Shown here: one piece after another, positions 1,420 through 18,455 of the stretch
Numbering within the stretch: position 1 is the stretch's first letter
Layout: every line of letters begins with the position of its first letter
Assembly (NCBI GenBank): GCA_964497525.1
Contig: CAZCDT010000060.1
Span: forward strand, 1-18,592
Direction: 5' to 3'
DNA length: 18,592 bases
From: an uncultured Bacteriovoracaceae bacterium
GTDB taxonomy: Bacteria; Bdellovibrionota; Bacteriovoracia; Bacteriovoracales; Bacteriovoracaceae
Notes under the pieces: generated by a model
The model's database searches: none
Seen by the model: only the letters and a program-made list of their open reading frames with translations
Told to the model about the DNA's origin: nothing
Translations under genes and position numbers: made by a program

Positions 1420-2733
1420 TTATATTTCTGCTATAGAAAAAAAGTGTCCGTAAATCATGCCAGAGATTGTGGCCATAATTATTACAAGTGTTACAAACAC
1501 CACTGTTTTCTTGGTTCCCATTACAGTTCGAATAACTAACATGTTTGGTAAACTTAAGGCCGGACCAGCAAGCAAAAGTGCAAGAGCTGGCCCTTGCCCC
1601 ATTCCGTTTGCAATAAGTCCTTGCAATATTGGCACTTCCGTAAGAGTTGCAAAATACATAAAAGCACCAGCAAAAGAGGAAAAGAAATTTGCACCAAAGG
1701 AATTACCACCAACAAGATTTACAATCCATTCTTTTGGAATAATGCCCTCCGTCTCTGGCCGACCGAGCAAAAATCCTGCAATGACAACACCGAAAAGAAG
1801 AAGAGGTAAGATTTGTTTAGAAAATGTCCAAGAAGATGAAAACCACTCTTTGGTTTCATCTGTTCCTGTATTTGCAATTATTGATAATAAAATAAAACCG
1901 ACAGTAAAAGGCACAATAGGATTTTCAGGAGATAGAAAATGTACTATTCCCACTGTAATTGTCGCTCCAATAATTTTCCAAAGCCTTAGTCCAAACCACT
2001 GCCAGAGAATTATATTGAAAGCGAAATAAAAAGCTGAGGTGATAATCCATTTACTCGAATATAGTGAAAACCATAGGCCGTGAGTTTCAAGTGGCCTTCC
2101 CCAATTTGCAAAAACTAAAATTCCGACCATGGAAAGAAAATATAAAATATTTTGATATAAAGGCCGAGTGACCTCTGGTTCTGGCAGCATCATCTGCTTG
2201 TTTGATTTTGCAATTTCTTCTTTTCTGAAGATAAAATGCATCAATAGACCAATGACGATACTAAAAACGATAGCACCAACGGCCCGCGCGACACCAAGAT
2301 GAAACCCTAATATTTTCGCAGTTAAAACTATTGCCAAAATATTAATTGCTGGGCCTGAATATAAAAATGTAGTAGCAGGACCAAGGCCTGCACCCATTCT
2401 ATAAATTCCAGAAAAAAGAGGAAGAATGGTACAAGAGCAAACCGCCAAAATTGTTCCAGAAAAAGCGGCAACAGTATATGCCAAAGCTTTATTTGCCTTA
2501 GCACCTAAGTATTTCATCACAGATGCTTGACTAACAAAGACTGAAATTGCTCCCGCAATAAAAAATGCCGGTATTAAACAAAGTAAAACATGCTCTTGAG
2601 CGTACCATTTTATGAGGTGAAGTGACTCCATTATCGCGTTATCAAATTTGGCATTTCCGATCGGCAAAAAATACAATCCAATAAAGATGATAATCATCCA
2701 AAATAGTTTCTTCCATTCCGCTTTAAAATCCAT
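1420..2733 (-). CDS. arsP: ArsP-type permease (PF03773/DUF318 family; organoarsenical efflux permease-like).
   Basis: The 437-aa polytopic membrane protein carries the family-typical C-S-C motif in a TM helix (AVCSCTILPLFSG; compare TPFCSCS in ArsP). It lies 10 nt downstream of arsR in the same orientation. Confidence 0.75.
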   Translation of the reverse strand: MDFKAEWKKLFWMIIIFIGLYFLPIGNAKFDNAIMESLHLIKWYAQEHVLLCLIPAFFIAGAISVFVSQASVMKYLGAKANKALAYTVAAFSGTILAVCSCTILPLFSGIYRMGAGLGPATTFLYSGPAINILAIVLTAKILGFHLGVARAVGAIVFSIVIGLLMHFIFRKEEIAKSNKQMMLPEPEVTRPLYQNILYFLSMVGILVFANWGRPLETHGLWFSLYSSKWIITSAFYFAFNIILWQWFGLRLWKIIGATITVGIVHFLSPENPIVPFTVGFILLSIIANTGTDETKEWFSSSWTFSKQILPLLLFGVVIAGFLLGRPETEGIIPKEWIVNLVGGNSFGANFFSSFAGAFMYFATLTEVPILQGLIANGMGQGPALALLLAGPALSLPNMLVIRTVMGTKKTVVFVTLVIIMATISGMIYGHFFSIAEI

Positions 2734-2743
2734 ATTTCAACCC

Positions 2744-3034
2744 TTATTCTTTGGTATTTATGACTGCCTCAATACAGTCGATATATTTTAATACACACGG
2801 AGTACGCAAACTATAAAACACTTTAAGCCCCCGCTTATCATCTTCGATTATGCCTGCATTTTTTAAAACAATTAGATGGCGTGAAAGTGTCGACTGATCC
2901 ATTTCAAATAATTCATTTAATTCACAAACACACAACTCTTTTTTCTTTGCCAAGGCCTCAATAATTACAAGACGAGCAGGATGCCCCATTGCTTTGATAA
3001 TTTCGGCCCGTTTTTTATATTTTTTTAAATTCAT
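2744..3034 (-). CDS. arsR: ArsR/SmtB-family metalloregulator carrying the As(III)-binding ELCVCEL motif.
   Basis: The track start at 3067 is GTG. The likely start is the ATG at 3034..3032 (MNLKKYKKRAEII..., 96 aa), preceded by a GGAG SD 8 nt upstream. A helix-turn-helix is present (HPARLVIIEALAKKKELCVCELNELF...QSTLSRHL). The Cys-Val-Cys sits at the position of E. coli ArsR ELCVCDL. Confidence 0.85.
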   Translation of the reverse strand: MNLKKYKKRAEIIKAMGHPARLVIIEALAKKKELCVCELNELFEMDQSTLSRHLIVLKNAGIIEDDKRGLKVFYSLRTPCVLKYIDCIEAVINTKE

Positions 3035-3134
3035 TTTTAAACTCCATGCATATTTTGTAATATACACATATTGCTAATTTAAAGCAAGAAGGAATTTTTA
3101 CACCTTTAATCACTACTAAAATAAACAGTGAATG

Positions 3135-4322
3135 CTATTTGACTGGAGAAAGAAGTGCTGCCGCAGAATAATCTCCCGCATGAGAAAATCCTGCCAAAAG
3201 AATATCACCTAAAGAATCAATTTTCTTCGACGAAAGCGCTAACTCTAAATTAATAGGAATCCCTGCTTGAAATAAATTACCTAAACTCTCAAAAGATTCG
3301 ATATGCCGTTCTTTTGGGATTTGTATAGCTTCACGCCAATTTCGCAAAAATGTATGATTTGGTTGATTGGTAATCAATGCAGCTAAATCACGGCCCTTTA
3401 TTTTACTACGCTCAAGAATCTCATTCATTACTTTTGGCACCAAGCGAAAACCGCGCATAACAATCATAAAAACAGCACTACAACGATCAAAAGAGGATCG
3501 CAGTTTTGTGCTAGACTCCCCCATTACTCCACTAATTCCTAAAAATGATTGCTCTGTTTCGGGAAAGGAGCTTTTTCCTTCTGGGCCTAAAAGCACCAAC
3601 GCATTTAGATTTTTTGCCAAGGAATAAATCTCATCATAAATACCAGCTCTAGTCGCTTCAGCGCCGATCCAAAAAATAATCTGATTTTTATGTTTTAGTA
3701 AATCATCGATAAATAATTTATCAACATTGCAATTAGCAGTAGAAGAGTACGGCCGGATCTTATTATCTTTTTCATTTAAAATTAAAACATCTGATATTTG
3801 AATATTTTTAGGCAAAACAATAACTGCTGGGCGACTGTTCTCTAGGGCCCTCTTGTATGCCATTAGTACAATTTACTGAGTTCTCTTAGTATCTACAAGC
3901 TTTTCTGCATAACAAGTAATAGCTTTAAATATCGTCATAATAGAAAAGCTATCACCAAGTCCACTACTATCTTGGAAAGCACCATTACCTTCAAGAGAAA
4001 GAGATGGTGCTCCAACAAAAACTAGCATCGGAATTCGGGAATTATAGGCCTCGCCAAGTCCTGCTAGAATATTTAGGGCCGCACCACCTGACGTTGCTAA
4101 GACCACGGCCATCTTACCTGATATTTTGAAAAAACCATCTGCCATTGTCACTGCACCAAATTCATGTTTTGCTAAAACGATTCTTATATCAGGAAAAATT
4201 GTTCGTCTTTTTCTTTCCAAAGAATCAAAAAGATCCTCAATGTTTGCACCACTTATTCCAAAAAAATGAGTCATCTGTAAATCAGAGACCAATATTTTAG
4301 AAATTGCATCAACTACTTTCAA
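3135..4322 (-). pseudogene. Thiamine-pyrophosphate enzyme of the acetolactate synthase/pyruvate oxidase family. It is interrupted by an in-frame TAA and truncated before the C-terminal TPP-binding domain.
   Basis: ORF 4322..3873 is a TPP_enzyme_N (PYR) domain (FGISGANIEDLF...HEFGAVTMADGFFKISGKMAVVLATSGGAALNILAGLGEAYNSRIPMLVFVGAPS). ORF 3863..3135 is the central domain (IIFWIGAEATRAGIYDEIYSLAKNLNALVLLGPEGKSSFPETEQSFLGISGVMG). Both lie in the same frame (both starts ≡2 mod 3), separated only by TAA at 3875..3873 plus three codons. No GDG...N TPP-binding motif follows before arsR. A GGAG SD and a TTG start are retained at 4322. Confidence 0.6.
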
Positions 4323-4417
4323 AAAAACTCCTACGAATAAATCTTTTAATTATCAAAAAATTGCCATCATAGCTGAAATTTGAAAGAAAAGGGAGTAATA
4401 ATATGTTTTTGTAATTC

Positions 4418-6085
4418 TTACCCAAAAAAGATAATGAGTAGCTGCACCCCTATTACTCGCATCATCATGGTTAAAGGGTATACAGTTGCATAAGCTATTG
4501 CAGGTGTATCTGATTTTGCAATCTGATTTGCAAATGCTAGGGCCGGTGGATCTGTCATGCTTCCAGAAAGAAGCCCACAAACAGTCATAAAGTTTTTTTG
4601 AAGTATAGCTCTTGCAATAATCCCAACAAGAATTACAGGTATTACAGTGATTAAGGCCGCAAGAAGCATCCAATAAAAACCATCTCCTTGAAAAAGTGTT
4701 GTAAAAAACATTCCTCCTGCTCGAATACCAACACAGGCCAAAAAAATTGAGATTCCTATTTCTCTTAGCACATAATTAGCACTTGTTGGCATGTGCCAAA
4801 TAAGAGGGCCTATTTTTCCAAGCCAACTAAACAGTATGGCAACAAGCAATGGTCCACCAGCAAGACCAATTTTAAAGGCATAAGGTAATCCTGAAAATTT
4901 TATTGGAATACTACCAAGAATAACTCCTAGCGCTATGCCTACAAATACAGGAATAATTTGTGGATGATTAAAACTTTTTATAGAGTTTCCTAAATAATCA
5001 GCAACATTTTTAAGTGCTTCTTTTTCTCCAACAACAGTAACAAGATCGCCAAAGTTTAATTTATGATTGCTTGCGCCAGCAAATTCGACTTCTCCTCTTC
5101 TAACTCTTGTAATAACAGCTCGAAATTTTTCATACAAGTTTAAATCCAAAAGACCTTTACCAATTATTTCATTTTTTGTTACTAAAATGCGTTTTTTCCC
5201 CAATGGACTAGTTAGCGCAGAAATATCGACATCAACCTTAATTCCTATGATTTTTTCAAGTTCAAGCAAGTGTGCACGACTACCAACAAGATGAATAACA
5301 TCATTAATCTTTAAATGAGTATTGTTGAGCGCTACAAAAACTTCTCCATCACGCATTACTCTTGAAATAACAGTTTCTTGATCTTTTAAGCAGTCAAGTT
5401 TTTCGACAGGCAAATCACAAATGGCAGCATTAGTAACCTTTATATTAATGTTTTCTAAGTTTGGTGTTTCTTTCTTTGATAGATCTATAAATTGGGCCTC
5501 TTCGGCATCAATATTAATCTTAAAAATATTTTTTAAAAATAACATAGACAAAATAACCCCAAGAATACCAAACGGATATGCGATCGCATAACCTAACGCT
5601 GGAGTTTTTACAATTTCACTAGCATTACCATGAATACTTATTAAAGCTTGTTGTGCGGCACCCAAAGATGGAGTATTGGTTGTTGCTCCAGAAAAAAGGC
5701 CAACAGCAACATTGATGTCGACACCACCAAATTTAGAAATTAAAAAAGTAATAATAAGGCCTAATATAACAATTAATGCAGCTAAAATATTTAACTTTAA
5801 GCCTTCTCTTCGAAACGAAGAAAAAAATCCAGGGCCAACTTGCATCCCAACTGTATATACAAAAAGAATCAGACCAAAATCTCGTAAAAATTCTAAAGTG
5901 TGTGGATCAATTGTAAATCCAAAGTGACCGATAGCAATGCCAACAAATAAGACGCCGGTAATTCCTATGGAAATACCACCAATTTTAATATTTCCAAGGA
6001 ATAAACCGGCCGCAATAACAATACTTAGAATAATCATTGTTTGGGAAACGGAAAAAACGGTAAATAGATCTAAAAACCACTGCAT
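4418..6085 (-). CDS. YidE/YbjL-family putative transporter (AAE/aspartate:alanine-exchanger-type duplication with two central TrkA_C/RCK_C domains).
   Basis: The product is 555 aa from the ATG at 6085 (MQWFLDLFTVFSVSQTMIILSIVIAAG...), with an AGGAG SD 5 nt upstream. The track N-terminus at 6136 runs through the leader repeats. The architecture is N-terminal TM block, two soluble RCK_C-like segments (ISRVMRDGEVFVA..., ITRVRRGEVEFAG...) and a C-terminal TM block, as in YidE/YbjL. Confidence 0.8.
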   Translation of the reverse strand: MQWFLDLFTVFSVSQTMIILSIVIAAGLFLGNIKIGGISIGITGVLFVGIAIGHFGFTIDPHTLEFLRDFGLILFVYTVGMQVGPGFFSSFRREGLKLNILAALIVILGLIITFLISKFGGVDINVAVGLFSGATTNTPSLGAAQQALISIHGNASEIVKTPALGYAIAYPFGILGVILSMLFLKNIFKINIDAEEAQFIDLSKKETPNLENINIKVTNAAICDLPVEKLDCLKDQETVISRVMRDGEVFVALNNTHLKINDVIHLVGSRAHLLELEKIIGIKVDVDISALTSPLGKKRILVTKNEIIGKGLLDLNLYEKFRAVITRVRRGEVEFAGASNHKLNFGDLVTVVGEKEALKNVADYLGNSIKSFNHPQIIPVFVGIALGVILGSIPIKFSGLPYAFKIGLAGGPLLVAILFSWLGKIGPLIWHMPTSANYVLREIGISIFLACVGIRAGGMFFTTLFQGDGFYWMLLAALITVIPVILVGIIARAILQKNFMTVCGLLSGSMTDPPALAFANQIAKSDTPAIAYATVYPLTMMMRVIGVQLLIIFFG

Positions 6086-6991: not shown

Positions 6992-7558
6992 ATGGCACTA
7001 ACCTTTGACCACATTCATTCTGGATATGACACTTTCATGAAAGTCGTTGGTTTATACCGCATAGATCAACTCAAAGAGTTATTGCAATTAAAAGGCAATG
7101 AATCTCTTTTGGATGTTGGTGGTGGTACAGGACATATCGTGTCTTTTTTAATTAACAATCTAAAAGATGCGACAATCATCGATGAAAGCCAACAGATGCT
7201 TTCCCATTTATCTAATAATGACAAAATTACGAGCATAGTTGGAGATGCAACACAACTTCCCTTTAAAGATCAAAGCTTTAATCGAATTATAATGTGCGAT
7301 GTTTTACATCATCTAAAAGATCAAACAAAAGTGCTCGCTGAAATAAAAAGGGTTTTAACAGATGACGGCATGTTTGTAATGTATGACTTTGATAAAGACG
7401 CTATGCTTGTAAAAATTCTCGTTTGTTTAGAAAAGATTTTTTTTAAAAATGTTTTATTTCACAACGCTGCATCATGCGAGAATTTATTAATTACAGCAGG
7501 ATTCAAAATTAAAAACTTTATAAAAGGGAATATATATTATGTCGTTTGTACAAAATAA
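6992..7558 (+). CDS. Class I SAM-dependent methyltransferase (small, ~188 aa).
   Basis: Motif I is LLDVGGGTGHIVSFL, followed by an acidic post-I residue (IIDES), motif II (GDATQLPFKDQSFNRIIMCDVLHH) and motif III (LTDDGMFVMYDF). A GAGG SD lies 5 nt before the ATG. The size and motif layout resemble PmtA/UbiE-like small methyltransferases (inference). Confidence 0.8.
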   Translation: MALTFDHIHSGYDTFMKVVGLYRIDQLKELLQLKGNESLLDVGGGTGHIVSFLINNLKDATIIDESQQMLSHLSNNDKITSIVGDATQLPFKDQSFNRIIMCDVLHHLKDQTKVLAEIKRVLTDDGMFVMYDFDKDAMLVKILVCLEKIFFKNVLFHNAASCENLLITAGFKIKNFIKGNIYYVVCTK

Positions 7559-8438
7559 ATTAAAGAGAGCAAAGCTAATGCTAAAGCTCCTTGGCCACCA
7601 TCTCTGTAAAAATTTTGTTACTGATGCTGATTATGCGAAAGAATACGATACGGTATCTTTAACCTATGATATTTGGCAAGCACAAATGGGCAAACATACC
7701 GATGCCATGATTACTGCCTTAAAAAAATATTTACCAGAAAATAGCTCAAACAATTTTAACGTATTAGATATCGCTTGCGGAACAGGATATATCACAAATG
7801 CGATAAACTTAATTAATCCAGAAGCTAAAATTACAGGAATTGATATATCTGCAGGCATGTTAAAAAAGTGTCAAGAAAATAATAAAAACTGTAAAAACCT
7901 AACTCTTTTAAACCAAGATGCTCTATCCTTTTTAAAAAATAGTTCACAAAAATTTGACCTTATAACTTGTGGTTGGGGAATTTCTTATTTTGACCCAGAA
8001 ATTCTTCTTAAAGCATGTGCTAATGCATTAACAAAAAATGGGCTCGTTGCTTTTATTGGAAATAGGCAGGGAACACTAAATGGTTTATTAGAGTGCTACT
8101 TAAATGTCATGACAAAGCATCAAGATCAAGTTGGAAAGCTTTTAAATATTTCTTCCAAACTTGCAAAAGATAAAAACGACTTCCAATCATGGTTTGAAAA
8201 ATCTGGTTTTGTAACACTTAAAGCATGTGATGGAGTTGAAGTTGTCTGTAAAAAAACAGCGAATGAACTATATCACTGGATTCAAGACTCTGGAGCAGGA
8301 GCTGGAACTAGAGTTATGTTTAAAAATGAATTTGTTATCAAACCATCGATTATTAGTGAACTTTCAGAAAAAATGAAAAGCCAAAACCAATACTGCATCA
8401 ATCATAATTTCGTTTGGATTGTTGCAAGAAAAATGTGA
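7539..8438 (+). CDS. Class I SAM-dependent methyltransferase (UbiE/CmoA/BioC-like N-terminal pattern) with a ~130-aa C-terminal extension.
   Basis: Motif I is VLDIACGTGYITNAI, with ITGIDIS post-I, NLTLLNQDALSFL and FDLITCGWGISYF. The preceding YD...YD...G.H pattern is typical of UbiE/CmoA-type enzymes. It overlaps the upstream methyltransferase by 20 nt, indicating an operon. Confidence 0.8.
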   Translation: MSFVQNKLKRAKLMLKLLGHHLCKNFVTDADYAKEYDTVSLTYDIWQAQMGKHTDAMITALKKYLPENSSNNFNVLDIACGTGYITNAINLINPEAKITGIDISAGMLKKCQENNKNCKNLTLLNQDALSFLKNSSQKFDLITCGWGISYFDPEILLKACANALTKNGLVAFIGNRQGTLNGLLECYLNVMTKHQDQVGKLLNISSKLAKDKNDFQSWFEKSGFVTLKACDGVEVVCKKTANELYHWIQDSGAGAGTRVMFKNEFVIKPSIISELSEKMKSQNQYCINHNFVWIVARKM

Positions 8439-8447
8439 GGAGACTTA

Positions 8448-9781
8448 TGTATTTATCAAATTTACCAACAATTATTCGTATGATTTGCGATAAAAATGTT
8501 AGAAATTTTTTAAAGCAAGCAGATCAAAAATTCTCATCAAATGCAGAGAGTAAAAACTATAGCAAAAAACAGCTTTTTGAAATCGTAAAAGCGATGTTTG
8601 ATGGTGAAAAAATTGTTCATCATCAAGGGAAATATGTGTTTTCATCTTTTTTACCTCCGGTACCATCTGGAGCATTAAAAAATGGAATAAGAAAAGAGAG
8701 TCGTTCATACAGTGATAGGGTAACATCTAAAAGAGATGCTCCCGTTTCTATGTATATGGCAATCACAAAAAGATGTCCTTACCGTTGCGCGCACTGTAGT
8801 GCTGCAATTTCAGATGGCAAAGATGAATTAACAACAAATGAGTGGCAAAAAATAATTGCCGATCTTCAAAATATGGGAGTGGGGATTATTGGTTTAACAG
8901 GAGGCGAACCTCTTCTTCGAAGCGACGTAGAAGAACTAATTTCTTCAATTGATGATCGCTCTGTTCCTTTTTTATTTACAAGCGGTGCTGGCCTTACCAA
9001 AGAGAGAGCTCTTAGCTTAAAAAGAAGTGGTCTTTTTGCTATAGGCATTAGTCTTGATTCATATATTAAAGAAGTTCATAATCAAAGAAGAGGTGGCAAT
9101 AAGGCCTTTGATCTTGCAATCGCTGCTATGAAAAATGCCAAGGCCGCCGGTCTTTACACTATGGCACAAATCGTTGTTTATAAACATCAACTAAACCGTG
9201 ACTACTTCTTTAAATATTTAAAATTTGTAAAATCAATCGGAGTACACGAAGTTCGAGTACTGGAACCAATTCGATGTGGAGAATTAATTAAGGAAAATGA
9301 CGATGTTTTTTATACCGCAAAAGATCGTAAACTTTTAATAGAACTTCATCATGAAGCAAATCGAAGGCCATGGCTTCCAAAGGTTACAACTTTTGCATAT
9401 ACCGAAAGCTATGAACGTTTTGGTTGCGGGGCCGGAGTACAGCATTCATATATTAATGAGAAAGGCGAACTTTTTCCTTGCGACTTTTTGCCGATGAGTT
9501 TTGGTAACGTAGTTAAAGAAGGTGTAAGTACTCTTTGGTCAAAAATGAGCGAGATCGTTGGAATTCCAAAACCTCACTGTTTTGCCCAAGTAGTAAATCA
9601 CGATTTGTGGAAAATATCTAAAGGCGAACTTCCTTTAGACACACAACGCTCCACAGATCTTTGTGTTAAGTACCAGGCAAAAGAGTATCCTCTAATTTAT
9701 AAAATGCTCCAACAATCTCCGGAGTTAAAGCTAAAAAGATCTCTTGTGGCAAAAACAGTGACAACAACGATAATAAAATAA
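8448..9781 (+). CDS. Radical SAM enzyme with a C-terminal SPASM/twitch-like Cys cluster and a ~105-aa N-terminal extension.
   Basis: The ATG at 8448 is preceded by a GAGGAG SD 5 nt upstream. The track start at 8414 is a TTG inside the end of the upstream methyltransferase. The CxxxCxxC motif is TKRCPYRCAHCS (Cys 109/113/116 from the ATG), with a GGEP SAM-binding motif (GLTGGEPLL). The C-terminal region reads RCGEL...FGCGAGVQHSYINEKGELFPCDFLP...PHCF...DLCV, consistent with a SPASM/twitch auxiliary-cluster domain. Confidence 0.8.
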
Positions 9782-9792
9782 GGATCTATTGC

Positions 9793-11343
9793 ATGGTAAC
9801 AAAAATCATATTTTTACTTTTTTTAACAACAAAACTAATCTTGCCAACTGCTATTGCAACAGAAAGTGGCGATGGAACTTTTGACGATCATAGTTTTTTA
9901 TATGAACAAACATCATCATTTTTAGATGATATAACAGAGCGCTCTTTTTATGCTTTTAAGAAAGAGAGACATACACTAGACGCTTTAAATGCAGAAGAAT
10001 ATCCTTTTGTTTTAAGAACAAGAGTTCCACATGAAGTTGTTATCGTTGACAAGGGTATTGCTGAGTTAGAACTGCGACTACAAATGATTAATAAGGCAAA
10101 AAAAAGCATTAACTATGAAATGTTTTTGATCGAACATGACGAAAGTACAAAAATAGTAATGCAACACTTGATGAAAAAAAGTCGAGAGGGCGTTGATGTA
10201 AAAATTTTAATCGATGATCTTCCTTTACTCGTATATTTTGATAAAGCATATATGGCCGTTTTACTTGAAAGTGGAATCAAAATAAAAACATATAATAAAA
10301 GTAATGCTGTTCAACTTTTTGGAAAAGGACAGTATCGAAACCATCGAAAATATATTTCGATCGACCAAAAATTTGCTCTGGTAACAGGACGTAATCAATC
10401 AAATGAATACTTTAATCTTGGCGAAAAATTAAATTATTATGATAGAGGAATCCTTGTAACAGGACCAATAGTCTCTGACCTTGATAAACAATTTAATGCT
10501 TTTTGGCAGCACTCTTATACTACAGAATACAAACCAAAAACCAAAGATATAGACGCATACTTAAAATGGACAAAAAAAGAGAGAGATTATTTATACTCAA
10601 TAACAGATGATGACCTTTTGCTCAGAGATTTAATAAATAATCATGGCGAAGAAGAACTAAAAAAAATGCCTCGAGGTTTTTGCTCAAACATGATGATTAT
10701 AAGCGATTTGCCAGGTAGAGGAATGAAGAAAAAAAGACTACATAGGGAAATTTTTAAAAGGATACAAGAAGCAAGAGATACTGTCTTAATAGAATCTCCA
10801 AGTGTTATTCTTGAATTATTTGAAAGAGATATTTTCAGAGAGTTACTACAAAAAAATGTCGAAATAAAAATTAATACAAACACCTATATGTTTCCATTAA
10901 AAGATGCAGCCGCAATGCTCGACATAAATGTTTCTAATGATAATATGAGCTACTGGAACAGAAAAGGCGTTATTGTTTACACTCCAACAGGAAAAGAAAC
11001 AATACACGAGCCACAAGTAAATTTTAAAAATAGACAAAATAATTCTGGTTGGAATATTCATACAAAATCGATCATCATCGATCATAAAGATTTCATGATC
11101 GGAAGCTATAATATTGATCCAAGATCAAAAGAGTTTTCATCTGAAATGGCAATTTTTTGCGAAGGGAATAAAGAATTAACAAAAGAAGTTGAAGATCTTT
11201 TTTATCAAAGAGCAAATGACGGTGTTTTATTTGAAAAAAACAATAGACCTCCTGGGGGATTTTTGAAAGATACGAGCACAAAAACAAAGATATTATATAA
11301 TCTGCAAAAACCTTTTGTGCATCTTTTTAAATGGCTTCTTTAA
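9793..11343 (+). CDS. Secreted phospholipase D / phosphatidyltransferase superfamily protein with two HKD motifs.
   Basis: The signal peptide is MVTKIIFLLFLTTKLILPTAIA. HKD motif 1 is HRKYISIDQKFALVTGRNQSN (HxKxxxxD...GxN). HKD motif 2 is HTKSIIIDHKDFMIGSYNID (HxKxxxxD...GSxN). It starts 11 nt after the radical-SAM gene's stop, on the same strand. Confidence 0.8.
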   Translation: MVTKIIFLLFLTTKLILPTAIATESGDGTFDDHSFLYEQTSSFLDDITERSFYAFKKERHTLDALNAEEYPFVLRTRVPHEVVIVDKGIAELELRLQMINKAKKSINYEMFLIEHDESTKIVMQHLMKKSREGVDVKILIDDLPLLVYFDKAYMAVLLESGIKIKTYNKSNAVQLFGKGQYRNHRKYISIDQKFALVTGRNQSNEYFNLGEKLNYYDRGILVTGPIVSDLDKQFNAFWQHSYTTEYKPKTKDIDAYLKWTKKERDYLYSITDDDLLLRDLINNHGEEELKKMPRGFCSNMMIISDLPGRGMKKKRLHREIFKRIQEARDTVLIESPSVILELFERDIFRELLQKNVEIKINTNTYMFPLKDAAAMLDINVSNDNMSYWNRKGVIVYTPTGKETIHEPQVNFKNRQNNSGWNIHTKSIIIDHKDFMIGSYNIDPRSKEFSSEMAIFCEGNKELTKEVEDLFYQRANDGVLFEKNNRPPGGFLKDTSTKTKILYNLQKPFVHLFKWLL

Positions 11344-12445: not shown

Positions 12446-13276
12446 ATGTCTGAATTTGAAAAAGCAATGAATGAAATCTTTAGAGGGCAAAATCCCCTAC
12501 TAAAAGGTGGATTTTTTCTTATTATTTTCTTAGGCATTATTATTGTACTGTCATCATACTACATCATAAATCCAGGACATCGAGGAGTGATGGTAACTCT
12601 TGGTTCTGTGTCAAAAGATTTTAAAGCAGAGGGACTTGGGTTTAAAATGCCTCTCATTTCTCAAATAATACAAATACCAGTTAAGCAAATTACCGTCGCA
12701 ACAAATGCTGAATCATATTCGTCAGATCTTCAGCAAATCAATATTGGTCTTTCTGTTTTATATCGTATTCCAGAACAATCTGTTGTCCCTCTATATCGCC
12801 AATATGCAGGAAATGTTTTTGAAGCATTAATTGATCCAAGGGTTCAAGAAGCAGTGAAAGAAGCAGTGGCACTTGAAAGTGCAGAAAGCATTGTTAAAAA
12901 AAGAGAGTTAATAAAAAATAGATCTCTGGAACTTGCGAGAAAAAAAATCGGAGATATTTTAATTATTGAAGATTTAGTGATTAGAAACATTGGCCTATCA
13001 AAAGAGTTAGAAAATGCAATTGAACAAAAAATGGTGCAAGAGCAAGAAGCTGCTAAAGCAAAATTTACCCAGCAAAAAGCAGAGATTGAGGCCAAGACAG
13101 CTATTATTAAAGCACAAGGGGAAGCACAGGCTATCAGTGTTCGCGGAAAAGCAATTAGAGAAAATCCTGGAGTTATTGATTTACAATTAATAGAAAAATG
13201 GAATGGAGTTAGTCCTTTGGTTGTTGGAGGAAATGGTAAAGGAGCAAATATTTTATTACCTATTAATCAGAAATAA
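12446..13276 (+). CDS. SPFH/band-7 (prohibitin/HflKC-like) membrane protein.
   Basis: The ATG at 12446 is preceded by an AAGGAG SD. The track start at 12383 is TTG. It has an N-terminal TM (FFLIIFLGIIIVLSSYYII), a PHB domain, and a C-terminal coiled-coil rich in Ala/Glu/Gln/Lys (EQKMVQEQEAAKAKFTQQKAEIEAKTAIIKAQGEAQA). Confidence 0.8.
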   Translation: MSEFEKAMNEIFRGQNPLLKGGFFLIIFLGIIIVLSSYYIINPGHRGVMVTLGSVSKDFKAEGLGFKMPLISQIIQIPVKQITVATNAESYSSDLQQINIGLSVLYRIPEQSVVPLYRQYAGNVFEALIDPRVQEAVKEAVALESAESIVKKRELIKNRSLELARKKIGDILIIEDLVIRNIGLSKELENAIEQKMVQEQEAAKAKFTQQKAEIEAKTAIIKAQGEAQAISVRGKAIRENPGVIDLQLIEKWNGVSPLVVGGNGKGANILLPINQK

Positions 13277-13292
13277 TTGCATACATAACCTT

Positions 13293-13362
13293 TGGCACAA
13301 TTTGCTGGTTACAAGCTGGCCAAATTTTTTTTAAAGCTGGCATTTTGTGCCCATTTTTTTTA
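13293..13362 (+). terminator. Possible intrinsic terminator after the SPFH gene (7-bp stem, long loop, then a T-run).
   Basis: GGCACAA at about 13293..13299 pairs with TTGTGCC at about 13344..13350 and is followed by CATTTTTTTTAATTTT. The loop is long (~44 nt) and has internal GCCA/TGGC pairing. This is weaker than the terminator at 16566..16606. Confidence 0.3.
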
Positions 13363-13523
13363 ATTTTCTAAAATATACACTATTCTTTTATACTCTTAGT
13401 CACAACAATACTTTGACTTGTATTTTTGGAAACAAAGAATGAATAATAGAAAATAAAGATAGCGAAGAGATATCAAACGATATACTTTATCGACAAAAAG
13501 CGTGGGAACTTGAAACTTCAAAA

Positions 13524-14237
13524 ATGGCCCTTTTGGGTGAAATGGCCGGAGGTATGGCCCATGAAATAAATACCCCTCTTGGAGCAATCCTTCTTAGTCT
13601 AGGACAAATAAAAACGGCCATTAACAAACCAGTTATTCCAAAAGAGTTAATCACTGAAATTGTTGATGATATCGAAAGTTCTGTTGCTCATATTTCAAAA
13701 ATAATTAAAGCATTAAAAAGTTATTCAAGGGATGGAAAGAATGGTCGTTTTGTTTTTTCTAATTTTTTAGAAATCATAGATGATGCAATTCAAATTTGTG
13801 AATATAAATTAAAGCATCACTCTATTTCTATTGAAGTAAAAAATAGCGATAATTCAAAAGAAAACTGGGGACTAGAGTGTAATCCAACTCAAATAAATCA
13901 AGTTATCGTAAATCTAGTCAATAACGCAAGAGATGCAATTAAAGAACACAAAACTAAATGGATCAAAATTGATATCGATAAAGATGATCAAAAAATTTAT
14001 ATTACCATAACTGATAGCGGAAAAGGGATTCCACAGAATGTTCAGAAAAAAATTTTTAATCCTTTCTTTACAACAAAAGAAATAGGAAAGGGCACAGGGC
14101 TTGGTCTTTCTGTTTGCAAAGGAATAATTGAATTACATGGAGGAACGATTCAATTAGATAAAGAGAATGAAAATACCTGCTTTAAAATAGATTTACCAAG
14201 AAGACCACCTCCTCCAGAGGAAGAATCAAATGAATAG
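13524..14237 (+). CDS. Cytoplasmic, sensor-less histidine kinase (HisKA + HATPase_c only).
   Basis: The H-box is MAHEINTPLGAIL, the N-box NLVNNARDA, G1 ITDSGKGIP and G2 GKGTGLGLSV. There are no TM segments and no sensor domain, and the product is only 237 aa. The start is uncertain: there is no SD, and the in-frame upstream codons already look like part of the dimerisation helix. The 3' end overlaps the response-regulator gene by 8 nt. Confidence 0.75.
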   Translation: MALLGEMAGGMAHEINTPLGAILLSLGQIKTAINKPVIPKELITEIVDDIESSVAHISKIIKALKSYSRDGKNGRFVFSNFLEIIDDAIQICEYKLKHHSISIEVKNSDNSKENWGLECNPTQINQVIVNLVNNARDAIKEHKTKWIKIDIDKDDQKIYITITDSGKGIPQNVQKKIFNPFFTTKEIGKGTGLGLSVCKGIIELHGGTIQLDKENENTCFKIDLPRRPPPPEEESNE

Positions 14238-15576
14238 TGAGATTTCAATTTTAGTTGTTGATGATGATGAAAAATTTAGAAAAACAGTTAAACGCAGTTT
14301 GCTGCTAGCTGATTATCAAGTTATGGAAGCAGATAATGGTGCTGATGCTAGTTTAATGTTGGATAAAAAAAGATTTGATTTAATAATTTCAGATATCAGG
14401 ATGCCAAAGATGGATGGTATCGAATTGTTAAATATAACCAGAAAAAAACACTCTCATATACCTGTAATTTTAATGACAGGTTTTTCTGAGATAATTGAAA
14501 TAACTGAGGCCTACGATCTTGGGGCACAAGGCTTTTTAAATAAACCATTTAAAGAAGATGCACTAATTCATGAAGTCGAGACAATTTTAAACAAAACAAA
14601 AGAGTCTTACTCTAAGACAAATGATTTTCATTTAAAAAACAGATTTAGATTCATTGACATAGGAGATTTCATAAACGGTAGCCAAATAAAATATCCTATT
14701 TTTTTAAAACTAAATGATAAAAAATTTGTAAAAATTGCTAACGAAGGAGAAGATCTTTCTGAAGATAGAATTGAAGTCCTAAGGAAGCGTGGGATTAAAG
14801 AACTGTATTTAGAAAAGGATCATTTTCAAGATTATGTCCAACATACATTAGGGTTTGCATATCATGTTTCAGCATCTCCACTTTATACAAATGAGCAAAA
14901 AGAAGATGTTTATATTACAACATGTAATTTATTAATAGAGCTTGGTATCAGTGAAGGAATGGATCCAATTATTTTTGAACAATCTTTAACATTAGTGAAA
15001 CAAACCCTTCTGCTTGTAATTGAGCAAGACGCACTATTTGCCCATCTTACGAAACTAAAAAACAGTTCTGAACGCGTCTACTCACATTGCATGAGTACTG
15101 CTCTTATTGCAATGATGCTTGCAAAAAAAGCACAGATTGTTTCTGTACATAATCATATGAAAATTATTATTGCAGCATTTTATCACGACATCGGACATGA
15201 TTATGAAAATAAAGAGTTAATGCAAAAATCACGTTTCCTCTATAACGAACACGAAATGGCCTTATATAAGGCCCACACGGAAAAAGGTGCAAAAATTCTT
15301 TCTGATATTCCAGAAATAACTCAAGATATTGTTGATATCGTTGCTCAGCACCACGAGACCGTAGATGGTGGCGGTTTTCCAAAAGGGCTAACAAAACATG
15401 CGATTCATCCACTTGCAAAAGTATTGCGGCTAGCTGATGAATACAGTAACTGGTTTATTGGTGTTCCCGGTTATGTAAAATTATCAAATCATAAATTAGT
15501 AATAGAAAAAATAGAATCAAATCATCAAAAGTATGATAAAAATCTATTAGAATATCTTAAATCACTATTTAAATAG
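14230..15576 (+). CDS. Response regulator: REC, then a DUF3391-like linker region, then an HD-GYP phosphohydrolase (GYP replaced by GFP).
   Basis: REC features are ILVVDDDE, the phospho-acceptor in DLIISDIRMPKMDG, and LNKPF. The middle region (IDIGDFINGSQIKYPIFLKLNDKKFVKIANEG...) resembles the domain found N-terminal to HD-GYP domains. The HD motif is FYHDIGHD, followed by HHETVDGGGFPKG. A GAGGAAG SD precedes the ATG. Confidence 0.8.
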   Translation: MNSEISILVVDDDEKFRKTVKRSLLLADYQVMEADNGADASLMLDKKRFDLIISDIRMPKMDGIELLNITRKKHSHIPVILMTGFSEIIEITEAYDLGAQGFLNKPFKEDALIHEVETILNKTKESYSKTNDFHLKNRFRFIDIGDFINGSQIKYPIFLKLNDKKFVKIANEGEDLSEDRIEVLRKRGIKELYLEKDHFQDYVQHTLGFAYHVSASPLYTNEQKEDVYITTCNLLIELGISEGMDPIIFEQSLTLVKQTLLLVIEQDALFAHLTKLKNSSERVYSHCMSTALIAMMLAKKAQIVSVHNHMKIIIAAFYHDIGHDYENKELMQKSRFLYNEHEMALYKAHTEKGAKILSDIPEITQDIVDIVAQHHETVDGGGFPKGLTKHAIHPLAKVLRLADEYSNWFIGVPGYVKLSNHKLVIEKIESNHQKYDKNLLEYLKSLFK

Positions 15577-16610: not shown

Positions 16611-17391
16611 CTACTTAAGCATCTTGAAACTTTTAAACAATTTATCATCCTGTCCTGTGTGAATAATTAAATATCTCCAAATTCGCTTCCAATCCAAAGA
16701 GTGATCTTGTAAATAATCTACACACTCTGGGTACTTTCTTTTTAAAAGTGATCCCAAATTATTCCAAAGATAAACATCCAGGGGCATTTTTTGAGTATCA
16801 CAATTAAGACATACAAATCCTCCATCTGTAACATTTAAAGCAGAAATATTTGATTCGTTTAATGTTTTTTGACAGTGGATACAGCAGTCAAATTGAAAAA
16901 AGATTCCAAGTTCATGAATTATTTTTAATAAAAAAGTTATTATGTGAGCAGAGATATTTAACTTTAAATTTGTTGCATCCTTTTCTAAAGCAAAAATCGC
17001 ATTAGAAAAAACGGTAAAAAAACCTTGATTGTCGGTCATCTCATAAGAAAATGAATCATTTAAATTAACTTTTTGAGTAAAAATATTTGCACACTCTAAA
17101 TATAAGCATAGAAGTATAAAAGCATTGTGATTCTCTCTTATCTTTTTGTGATACCACAATGCACTCCACTCTTTTGCTGTATACAAATCTGTTGTATTAC
17201 TTGAATGGTTTAATTCAACCATTAACATATAACCTATTTCTAAAATAGAACTTTTTATTTTTCCCACCACCAGCACCACCATAAAAAATAGCAGATACCT
17301 GCATCCCACTACGAAGAAGCAAAGTACCAATAATATCCCTTTCTTTGTAGGGAATTTTTTTTATTAATATTCCTTCTATTTTTTTTTGCAT
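16611..17391 (-). pseudogene. recO: recO (DNA repair protein RecO), disrupted by a +1 frameshift in a homopolymeric A tract.
   Basis: ORF 17397..17215 encodes the RecO N-terminal OB-fold region (MQKKIEGILIKKIPYKERDIIGTLLLRSGMQVSAIFYGGAGGGKNKK). ORF 17330..16611, in another frame, continues from ...KIKSSILEIGYMLMVELN... through the helical domain and a C-terminal Cys4 zinc finger (CCIHCQ...CLNCD). The two frames overlap at GGGAAAAATAAAAAG, forward coordinates ~17242..17254. Deleting one A there restores ...GGGKNKSSILEIGYM.... Confidence 0.7.
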
Positions 17392-17393
17392 AA

Positions 17394-18455
17394 TCAACTA
17401 GTATAAATAATTTCTTTTATTTCATCAAAATATTGCCATAATTTTATTTTTACATCAAAAGCTATTGCAACCGCCATCGAGTGTTTTGAATCTTTAATAA
17501 ACTCAAATTCATTTAAAGAATGTAACTCATACTTTTCTCCTTGTCTGCCTCCCCTACCAACCATTTGAATAAAAAAATCTTTTTTTTCTACTTTATAGGT
17601 TATAAAAATTTTTCTTATGGGAGGTAAATTAACACCATGACTTAGAGCAATCGTTGCAAAAATTACTGCAGGAGACATCTCCTGTAGTTTCTTTGAAAAA
17701 GAAGTTGTCTCGCCACCTTTACATCCAATGGCCAATATTCCATTTTTTTTACACCACATAAGCCATCGATCAACCTCTTCTCTATAACGGCAAAACACCA
17801 GTATAATTTCTTTTGATTTTGACTGTTTTTTTAACTCGTACATCAATCGACGATTTATCATTTTATGGCCAATTTCTTTAAAATTTGGATATGAGTTTAT
17901 TTTTGCTGGGGGAAATTTTAACTGCATATTCCCGTGATTTATGATGTAAAGATCTTGCACTGAAGTACTAATGTCATTTTGAATACGATTTAAGAGTGAT
18001 TCATTTAAAGTTGCCGTTAGTCCTAAAACAGGAACAGATGTTTCAAAAACACCCATAAGAGTTTCGATTAATGCGTGTCGAAAATCATCTCCCCACAAGT
18101 AGAAAAGATGAAACTCATCTATTACAACTAAAACAGAGTCCTGATTTTTATATAAAAAGGCCAGCATTTCGTCATCTACCATCTCGGCCGTTAAAAGTAT
18201 CATCGATGATTTCGATTTATAAAATTCATATAAAGTATTTTTTTTATTCTTACCACTCTCTAAAAGAAGTATTGGATAATTTCCTTTTAAGCGTTCAAAA
18301 AGCTCGTTAATTAACGCGCGCAAGGGAGAAATAAATACAACCTTTTTAAAATCTGTTGGGAATATATCTAGTAGCATCCTTGTTTTCCCTGCCGCGGGAG
18401 GAGCAATGTATATGAGGGAATTATTTGGTATAAGTAAGGGTGTTATCCAATGCAT
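17394..18455 (-). CDS. Minimal RecQ-like SF2 DNA helicase core (353 aa; no zinc-binding, RQC or HRDC regions).
   Basis: Motif I is APPAAGKT and Ia is ISPLRALINE. Motif II is VVIDEFHLFYLWGDDFR, compared with RecQ IDEAHCxSQWGHDFR. Motif III is LTATL and motif VI QMVGRGGRQG, compared with RecQ QExGRAGRDG. The stop TGA (17396..17394) overlaps the recO TTG and lies 2 nt before the recO ATG. Confidence 0.7.
   Translation of the reverse strand: MHWITPLLIPNNSLIYIAPPAAGKTRMLLDIFPTDFKKVVFISPLRALINELFERLKGNYPILLLESGKNKKNTLYEFYKSKSSMILLTAEMVDDEMLAFLYKNQDSVLVVIDEFHLFYLWGDDFRHALIETLMGVFETSVPVLGLTATLNESLLNRIQNDISTSVQDLYIINHGNMQLKFPPAKINSYPNFKEIGHKMINRRLMYELKKQSKSKEIILVFCRYREEVDRWLMWCKKNGILAIGCKGGETTSFSKKLQEMSPAVIFATIALSHGVNLPPIRKIFITYKVEKKDFFIQMVGRGGRQGEKYELHSLNEFEFIKDSKHSMAVAIAFDVKIKLWQYFDEIKEIIYTS

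Follow-up and report, generated by a model that had tools for sequence, protein, structure and literature searches.

A frame change in recO on a contig of an uncultured Bacteriovoracaceae bacterium

The recO gene on a contig of an uncultured Bacteriovoracaceae bacterium (18,592 nt, the entire contig of the NCBI record; this whole stretch is referred to here as the window) is not a single uninterrupted open reading frame. Homology to the RecO family places a switch of frame at 17250-17256, after which the original frame runs into a TGA at 17215-17217. The gene as sequenced is a pseudogene or broken allele. A real, recent loss-of-function allele, produced by a single indel at the codons of a Lys-rich loop, is favoured over an artefact, and we give this reading about an even chance of being correct. 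In either case the well-conserved gene, on a draft contig, has suffered a singleton frameshift of an ordinary sort, which is not a regulatory device. The features of the locus are as follows.

16611..17391, minus strand: disrupted recO, 781 nt (3n+1), assigned from its ORFs, Pfam and TIGR00613 matches, a family HMM, an AlphaFold2 (AF2) model and Foldseek
17251..17391, minus strand: 5′ segment in frame 0, codons 1-47 (MQKK...FYGGAGGGKNKK), OB-fold strands 1-3 and the Gly/Lys loop
17250..17262, minus strand: frame-change site, AAAAATAAAAAGT, where family homology moves from frame 0 to frame +1
16611..17252, minus strand: 3′ segment in frame +1, from AGT (Ser48 in the 260-aa numbering) to the stop, OB strands 4-5, helical domain and zinc finger
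17215..17217, minus strand: premature TGA in frame 0, ending a 58-aa product begun at the ATG at 17391
16800..16883, minus strand: zinc-finger motif C171-x2-C174 ... C195-x2-C198 (260-aa numbering), intact as read from the sequence
17394..18455, minus strand: DEAD/DEAH-box helicase gene upstream of recO, intact, 353 aa, with Pfam DEAD and Helicase_C domains

Structure and products of the interrupted gene

The gene is spread over two ORFs on the minus strand, which are to be annotated as one frameshifted recO and not as two proteins. The N-terminal ORF (17215..17397) has 60 aa counted from a TTG, the true start of recO being likely the ATG at 17391, and the C-terminal ORF (16611..17330) has 239 aa. 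That two RecO ORFs overlap in different frames had been claimed in an earlier note on this DNA and is confirmed here: the overlap is 116 nt and the matches are to RecO_N, RecO_C and TIGR00613. Outside the switch at 17250-17256, the 116-nt overlap is non-homologous read-through in both frames. At the junction the minus strand reads GGT GGT GGG AAA AAT AAA AAG TTC TAT, with GGG at 17265-17263, a run of five A's (A5) at 17262-17258, T at 17257, a second A5 at 17256-17252, G at 17251 and T at 17250. The frame that follows is shifted by +1 from the one before it; it reads (K)SSILEIGYMLMVELN... and is open to the stop at 16611, the 3′ segment containing no further stop or frameshift. As the gene has a length of 3n+1, taking away 1 nt or adding 2 nt yields one ORF, of 259 or 260 codons. 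On an HMM of the family, the 5′ segment (codons 1-47) scores 74.8 bits and a 203-aa C fragment (MVELN... to the stop, lying inside the 3′ segment) scores 165.6 bits.

The repaired gene is a bona fide Bacteriovoracaceae RecO according to Pfam, TIGR00613, the AF2 model and Foldseek. Before repair, the N fragment matches Pfam RecO_N at model positions 1-40 and the C fragment matches RecO_C with 30.1 bits (cut-off 22.1). In the repaired protein RecO_C (PF02565) scores 29.4 bits against the same cut-off of 22.1, RecO_N (PF11967) spans residues 1-75 with 21.7 bits, under its cut-off of 27, and TIGR00613 aligns residues 3-220 to positions 1-198 of 239, across the junction, with 44.2 bits (cut-off 48.7). 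The whole Bacteriovoracaceae RecO clade is divergent; a homologue of the contig protein carries the name RecO in a JGI record, and a sequence-profile search of the PDB with an 8-sequence alignment gave no match.

The AF2 model of the repaired protein (mean pLDDT 80.9, pTM 0.82) has a five-strand OB fold (E3-15, E19-26, E31-36, E55-62, E70-79) that superposes on RecO structures. Searched against the PDB with Foldseek, its best 11 matches are all RecO, with E-values from 2.8e-11 to 2.1e-05 and TM scores of 0.70-0.79 to RecO structures. The best (E = 2.8e-11) is D. radiodurans RecO (1U5K/1W3S, TM 0.66-0.78), and the others include RecOR complexes and RecO from E. coli (3Q8D), C. jejuni (7YMO) and T. 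thermophilus (8AB0). The contig protein shares with the solved RecOs the N-terminal OB fold, the helical domain and the CxxC...CxxC zinc finger. It differs from them in being only 13-18% identical, in its broken reading frame and in a Bacteriovoracaceae-specific [FY]GGxGGGKKxK loop. The Cys4 zinc finger of RecO is intact as a sequence motif, and its C171 is invariant across 71 homologues.

In the model the frame change sits in a low-confidence loop between OB strand 3 (31-36) and strand 4 (55-62). The N-terminal ORF is thus not a whole OB fold, and the barrel itself is cut. The earlier note had called this piece the N-terminal OB-fold ORF, which holds for strands 1-3; strands 4-5 are, in the AF2 model, encoded after the shift. 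If translation begins at the ATG at 17391, in coupling with the upstream helicase gene, 47 correct residues and then 11 wrong ones (FYFRNRLYVNG) would be made before the TGA at 17215-17217 ends it. Such a 58-aa product would comprise OB strands 1-3 only, and strands 4-5, the helical domain and the zinc finger would not be made. An allele of this kind would leave the cell without RecO, and RecFOR-type loading of RecA on SSB-coated gaps would be lost; we infer that the lesion abolishes RecO function. The lesion should have no polar effect, since the helicase-recO unit ends with recO and the following gene lies on the opposite strand. The TGA stop of the helicase gene lies 2 nt before the recO ATG, and the same helicase gene directly precedes recO in 58 of the 78 related loci, which suggests a clade-specific helicase-recO repair operon.

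Relatives of the gene and the size of the lesion

The relatives come from a scan of 185,579 GTDB species representatives, which gave 78 recO loci, 77 of them covering the frame-change site. They belong to MAGs or genomes of the Bacteriovoracaceae or Halobacteriovoraceae, plus a few that are probably mislabelled. The closest long match is at most 47% identical, and two at 52-54% are short matches ended by contig edges. A search of 5.8 billion protein sequences returned the window's own C fragment and otherwise only sequences of at most 43% identity. Of two scans of JGI metagenomes, the one with peptide patterns found no relative and the one with a degenerate FYGGAGGGKN pattern yielded a single chance match in a high-GC contig; exact look-ups of the recO C fragment and of the helicase found nothing on record.

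Every one of the 77 relatives that cover the site is in frame there. Their spacing is constant: [FY]GGxGGG is followed by four residues (usually KKxK) and then by [SGP]S-x-[IL]-E. The resulting clade-specific Gly/Lys loop, [FY]GGxGGGKKxK[SGP]S, lies between OB strands 3 and 4 (17250..17283 of the window, minus strand) and has low pLDDT. Its length is the same in the 77 loci while the A runs that encode it range from 2 to 9 nt, reaching at least 7 nt in 19 relatives and A9 in five. The earlier note had proposed a comparison with recO in close relatives; in these 77 loci, none of which is a close relative, the shift is absent throughout.

Where a related locus contains recO in full, the gene is one in-frame ORF, the exceptions being MAG MFD01721.bin.2.225 and possibly one more, so loss of the gene is unusual in the family. 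The recO of MFD01721.bin.2.225 (CAVVFE010000006.1, locus extract 3998..4785) has two frame changes (frames 2, 3, 1), both away from the Lys loop, and this double change could be an assembly error. A recO of the Halobacteriovorax/Bacteriovoracaceae type with the clade loop is also carried by a 2.03-Mb 'Sulfitobacter sp.' contig (JBLHVN010000001.1) and likewise by a 'Flavobacteriaceae' contig (CAXPDR010000030.1); these MAGs are probably mislabelled taxonomically.

The constant spacing bears on what was gained or lost. According to the earlier note, removal of one A makes the gene whole. In silico this does restore the frame, as one 259-codon ORF reading ...GGGKNKSSILEIGYM..., but leaves the protein one residue short in comparison with every homologue. 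Adding 2 nt (KNKK) gives GGGKNKKSSILEIG, with the exact spacing of the family, and restores GGGKNKKSSILE. Scored on the HMM, which was built from 71 intact homologues, the 2-nt repair reaches 281.1 bits as against 274.0 and 271.8 bits for two 1-nt repairs. Since the spacing is identical throughout the relatives, the simplest lesion is a loss of 2 nt and not one extra A; a single event of this kind would be the most parsimonious account of the aligned sequences. Three ancestral sequences would fit equally well. AAA-AAA-AGT (A7) may have become AAAAAGT by loss of AA, AAG-AGT may have become AAGT by loss of AG, or AAG-TCT-TCT, a codon pair common among the relatives, may have become AAGTTCT by loss of TC. 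With the lost pair ambiguous, a homopolymer event is not required. The description of the lesion as a +1 frameshift inside an A homopolymer is therefore correct as to the frame and the A-rich site, whereas the 2-nt loss may lie outside the homopolymer.

The lesion is also young, if it is a mutation at all. Of the 45 columns conserved to at least 85% among the homologues, 42 are retained in the repaired RecO, which thereby outranks 21 of the 71 intact homologues, and neither half of the gene has a second stop or frameshift. This lack of decay makes the event evolutionarily instantaneous, that is, a very young mutation or an artefact.

Accuracy of the contig and cause of the frame change

The window contains a second damaged gene. 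At 3135..4322 (minus strand) a TPP_enzyme_N ORF is stopped by an in-frame TAA (3873-3875), and in the ORF after it a truncated TPP_enzyme_M (model positions 6-83 of 137) is fused without a spacer to ACP_syn_III_C (1-87 of 90), the junction lying at about 3400-3470. The 33 homologues of this fusion are without exception ordinary FabH-like proteins, mostly of ~330 aa, that match its C-terminal 45% only, and the TPP_enzyme_M/ACP_syn_III_C architecture was not found in any other database protein. An independent assembly is available for part of the window in the form of Logan contigs from SRR15237810. One (SRR15237810_12899) is 100% identical over 1691 nt (window 2220-3910), covering both the stop and the fusion, and a second, in the histidine-kinase region, is 100% identical over 1045 nt (window 13261-14305). 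The TPP/KAS-III lesion is thus not specific to one assembler, and with zero differences the NCBI contig proves accurate in the parts open to comparison, and genuine lesions do occur in this genome. The earlier note had linked recO to this relic, which is reasonable: the relic is real at the level of assembly, and the contig holds at least one genuine gene wreck. None of the Logan products covers recO, the helicase gene or the neighbouring genes.

A real lesion would have arisen in the DNA that was sequenced, most likely as a deletion by replication slippage. The behaviour of other homopolymers on the contig argues for this reading. ORFs of the contig contain 235 A/T runs of at least 5 nt (137 of 5, 61 of 6, 27 of 7, 8 of 8 and 2 of 9 nt), and the frame is broken at just one of them; the other 234, among them an A9 and an A8 in the opening 12 codons of recO itself, keep the frame, which speaks against a systematic homopolymer problem. 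The 18.6-kb contig has one frame change, as against two within the recO of MFD01721.bin.2.225 alone, and a frameshift-ridden assembly, which the latter may be, is what systematic error would look like. Counting against a real lesion are the short draft contig, its thin coverage, the pristine state of the gene and the rarity of loss in the family.

These same points make an artefact a serious candidate, to which we would give somewhat less than an even chance. The recO of the organism would then be intact, and the consensus would lack 2 nt, or have 1 nt too many, in the A-rich stretch; low coverage, slippage during PCR or MDA, or a local assembly error are possible causes. Such an error would account for a frameshift that is unique to this contig, in a low-complexity, A-rich site, in a gene with neither half decayed. 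The contig is a draft from a poorly covered organism: the Logan contigs of SRR15237810 are only 1.0-1.7 kb long, which suggests poor coverage in that run, and the recO region is absent from them. No paper on this run turned up in a literature search. The genome is also absent from the GTDB representatives scanned, though its FYGGAGGGKN motif fits the search pattern. Against an artefact stand the 234 runs that are in frame and the two independently assembled Logan contigs, which show zero differences over 2.7 kb. The inferred lesion is moreover one of 2 nt. An indel of 2 nt is not the typical single-base homopolymer miscall of sequencing platforms. The contig also holds the TPP/KAS-III wreck, which is independent of the recO lesion, is not of the artefact type and cannot be a homopolymer miscall.

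In the GeneTack scheme a frameshift that is confirmed by homology and not shared with homologues is either an error or an indel mutation, the two not being told apart (PMC3711429). The recO case resembles the singleton frameshifts of that study (Antonov et al. 2013, PMC3711429) in having homology on both sides and in not being shared with homologues. It shows no substantive difference from them and is a textbook member of the class. A search of the literature on recO frameshifts found no recO-specific precedent, the results being mostly matches to the words 'recombination' or 'recoding'. The earlier note had offered three causes; artefact and inactivating mutation remain serious candidates, and the third, phase variation, is disfavoured by the A5 tract and the in-frame relatives.

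Phase variation would make the A tract a contingency locus at which slipped-strand mispairing turns recO ON and OFF and so creates repair-deficient subpopulations. We consider this very improbable. The frame does change in A-rich sequence, and in relatives the A runs that encode the loop are as long as 9 nt, which makes the site prone to indels by its nature. The tract here is A5-T-A5, however, which is far below classical contingency tracts, and calls of poly-A/T phase variation use a minimum of 7 nt (PMC3711429). No relative is out of frame at the site, not even the five carriers of A9. Under the 2-nt model reversion would need a gain of 2 nt. No length variant was found in the search of 5.8 billion proteins, the GTDB representatives or the JGI metagenomes, because no close relative is present in any collection searched. 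Compared with the contingency loci of Neisseria, Haemophilus, Campylobacter and Helicobacter, recO is alike in that its frame shifts in an A-rich run close to the 5′ end; it differs in its tract of 5 nt, in the lack of ON/OFF variation among the 77 relatives and in being an atypical gene class, neither a surface nor a restriction-modification type gene. A broader version would see the broken recO as a living allele, in which the Lys-codon A tract present in every Bacteriovoracaceae recO (2-9 A's) is a mutational soft spot that repeatedly yields RecO-deficient cells, partly rescued by slippage or by low-level -2/+1 decoding on AAA AAG. This is likewise highly unlikely; if true, predator populations would contain a subpopulation with altered recombination and repair.

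Recoding is an extremely improbable explanation. Full-length RecO would be made from the gene as it stands, either because ribosomes shift by +1/-2 on AAA AAG, in a programmed or compensatory way, or because RNA polymerase slips on the A run. The sequence AAA AAG is shift-prone since tRNA-Lys pairs weakly with AAG, as at the A AAA AAG site of dnaX, and it is present at the junction. Were the A-site tRNA-Lys to re-pair by -2, moving from AAG to AAA, the product would read KNKK-SSILE and have the length found in the family, and AAG and UUC are minor codons here (12.7 and 5.4 per 1000). However, the -2 product is the mirror image of a 2-nt deletion, and the shift is conserved in none of the 77 orthologues covering the site. 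The site has neither an in-frame stop nor a very rare codon, and re-pairing of the P-site tRNA on AUA would be required. The downstream RNA fold is unremarkable (z = -1.02, with 32 of 200 shuffles folding as well or better), and the sequence upstream of the shift is G-rich because it encodes the conserved glycines. A dnaX-type motif shifts by -1, which here meets a stop after three codons. The A5 is too short for transcriptional slippage, which has been described in bacteria for runs of ~9 A/T (PMC5009743). Thus recO shares AAA AAG and A runs with -1 frameshifting in dnaX, +1 frameshifting in prfB and the poly(A) slippage rescue of Buchnera and Blochmannia, but the direction is wrong for the dnaX motif, the stop or hungry codon, the structure and the conservation are missing, and the run is too short. 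Spontaneous slippage at the site is expected to provide at most a trace of RecO.

A functional split gene is rejected, as the break lies inside the OB barrel, no relative is split there and the called C fragment begins at Met60, inside OB strand 4.

Other genes of the window and meaning of the lesion

Two further groups of genes lie elsewhere in the window. A tight cluster with overlapping gene ends at 6992..11343 (plus strand) contains two SAM-dependent methyltransferase-like ORFs, a radical SAM/SPASM protein and a PLD-like (two-HKD) protein, the last two being those on which Pfam was run; its products may modify lipids or small molecules. At 13524..15576 (plus strand) there is a short histidine kinase of 237-263 aa, depending on the start, with HisKA and HATPase only and no sensor domain. 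Its gene overlaps that of a response regulator with an HD-type (HD_5) output domain.

The significance of the recO frame change beyond annotation is small. It teaches that the spacing of an indel across homologues can show the obvious repair, here the dropping of one A, to be probably wrong. Should the change be an artefact, the record has to be corrected by 2 nt and recO annotated as intact. If, as favoured here, the lesion is real, a Bacteriovoracaceae lineage, or the cells that were sampled, would have just lost the RecFOR mediator, and the loss of recO together with the TPP/KAS-III relic would hint at a somewhat raised load of pseudogenes.
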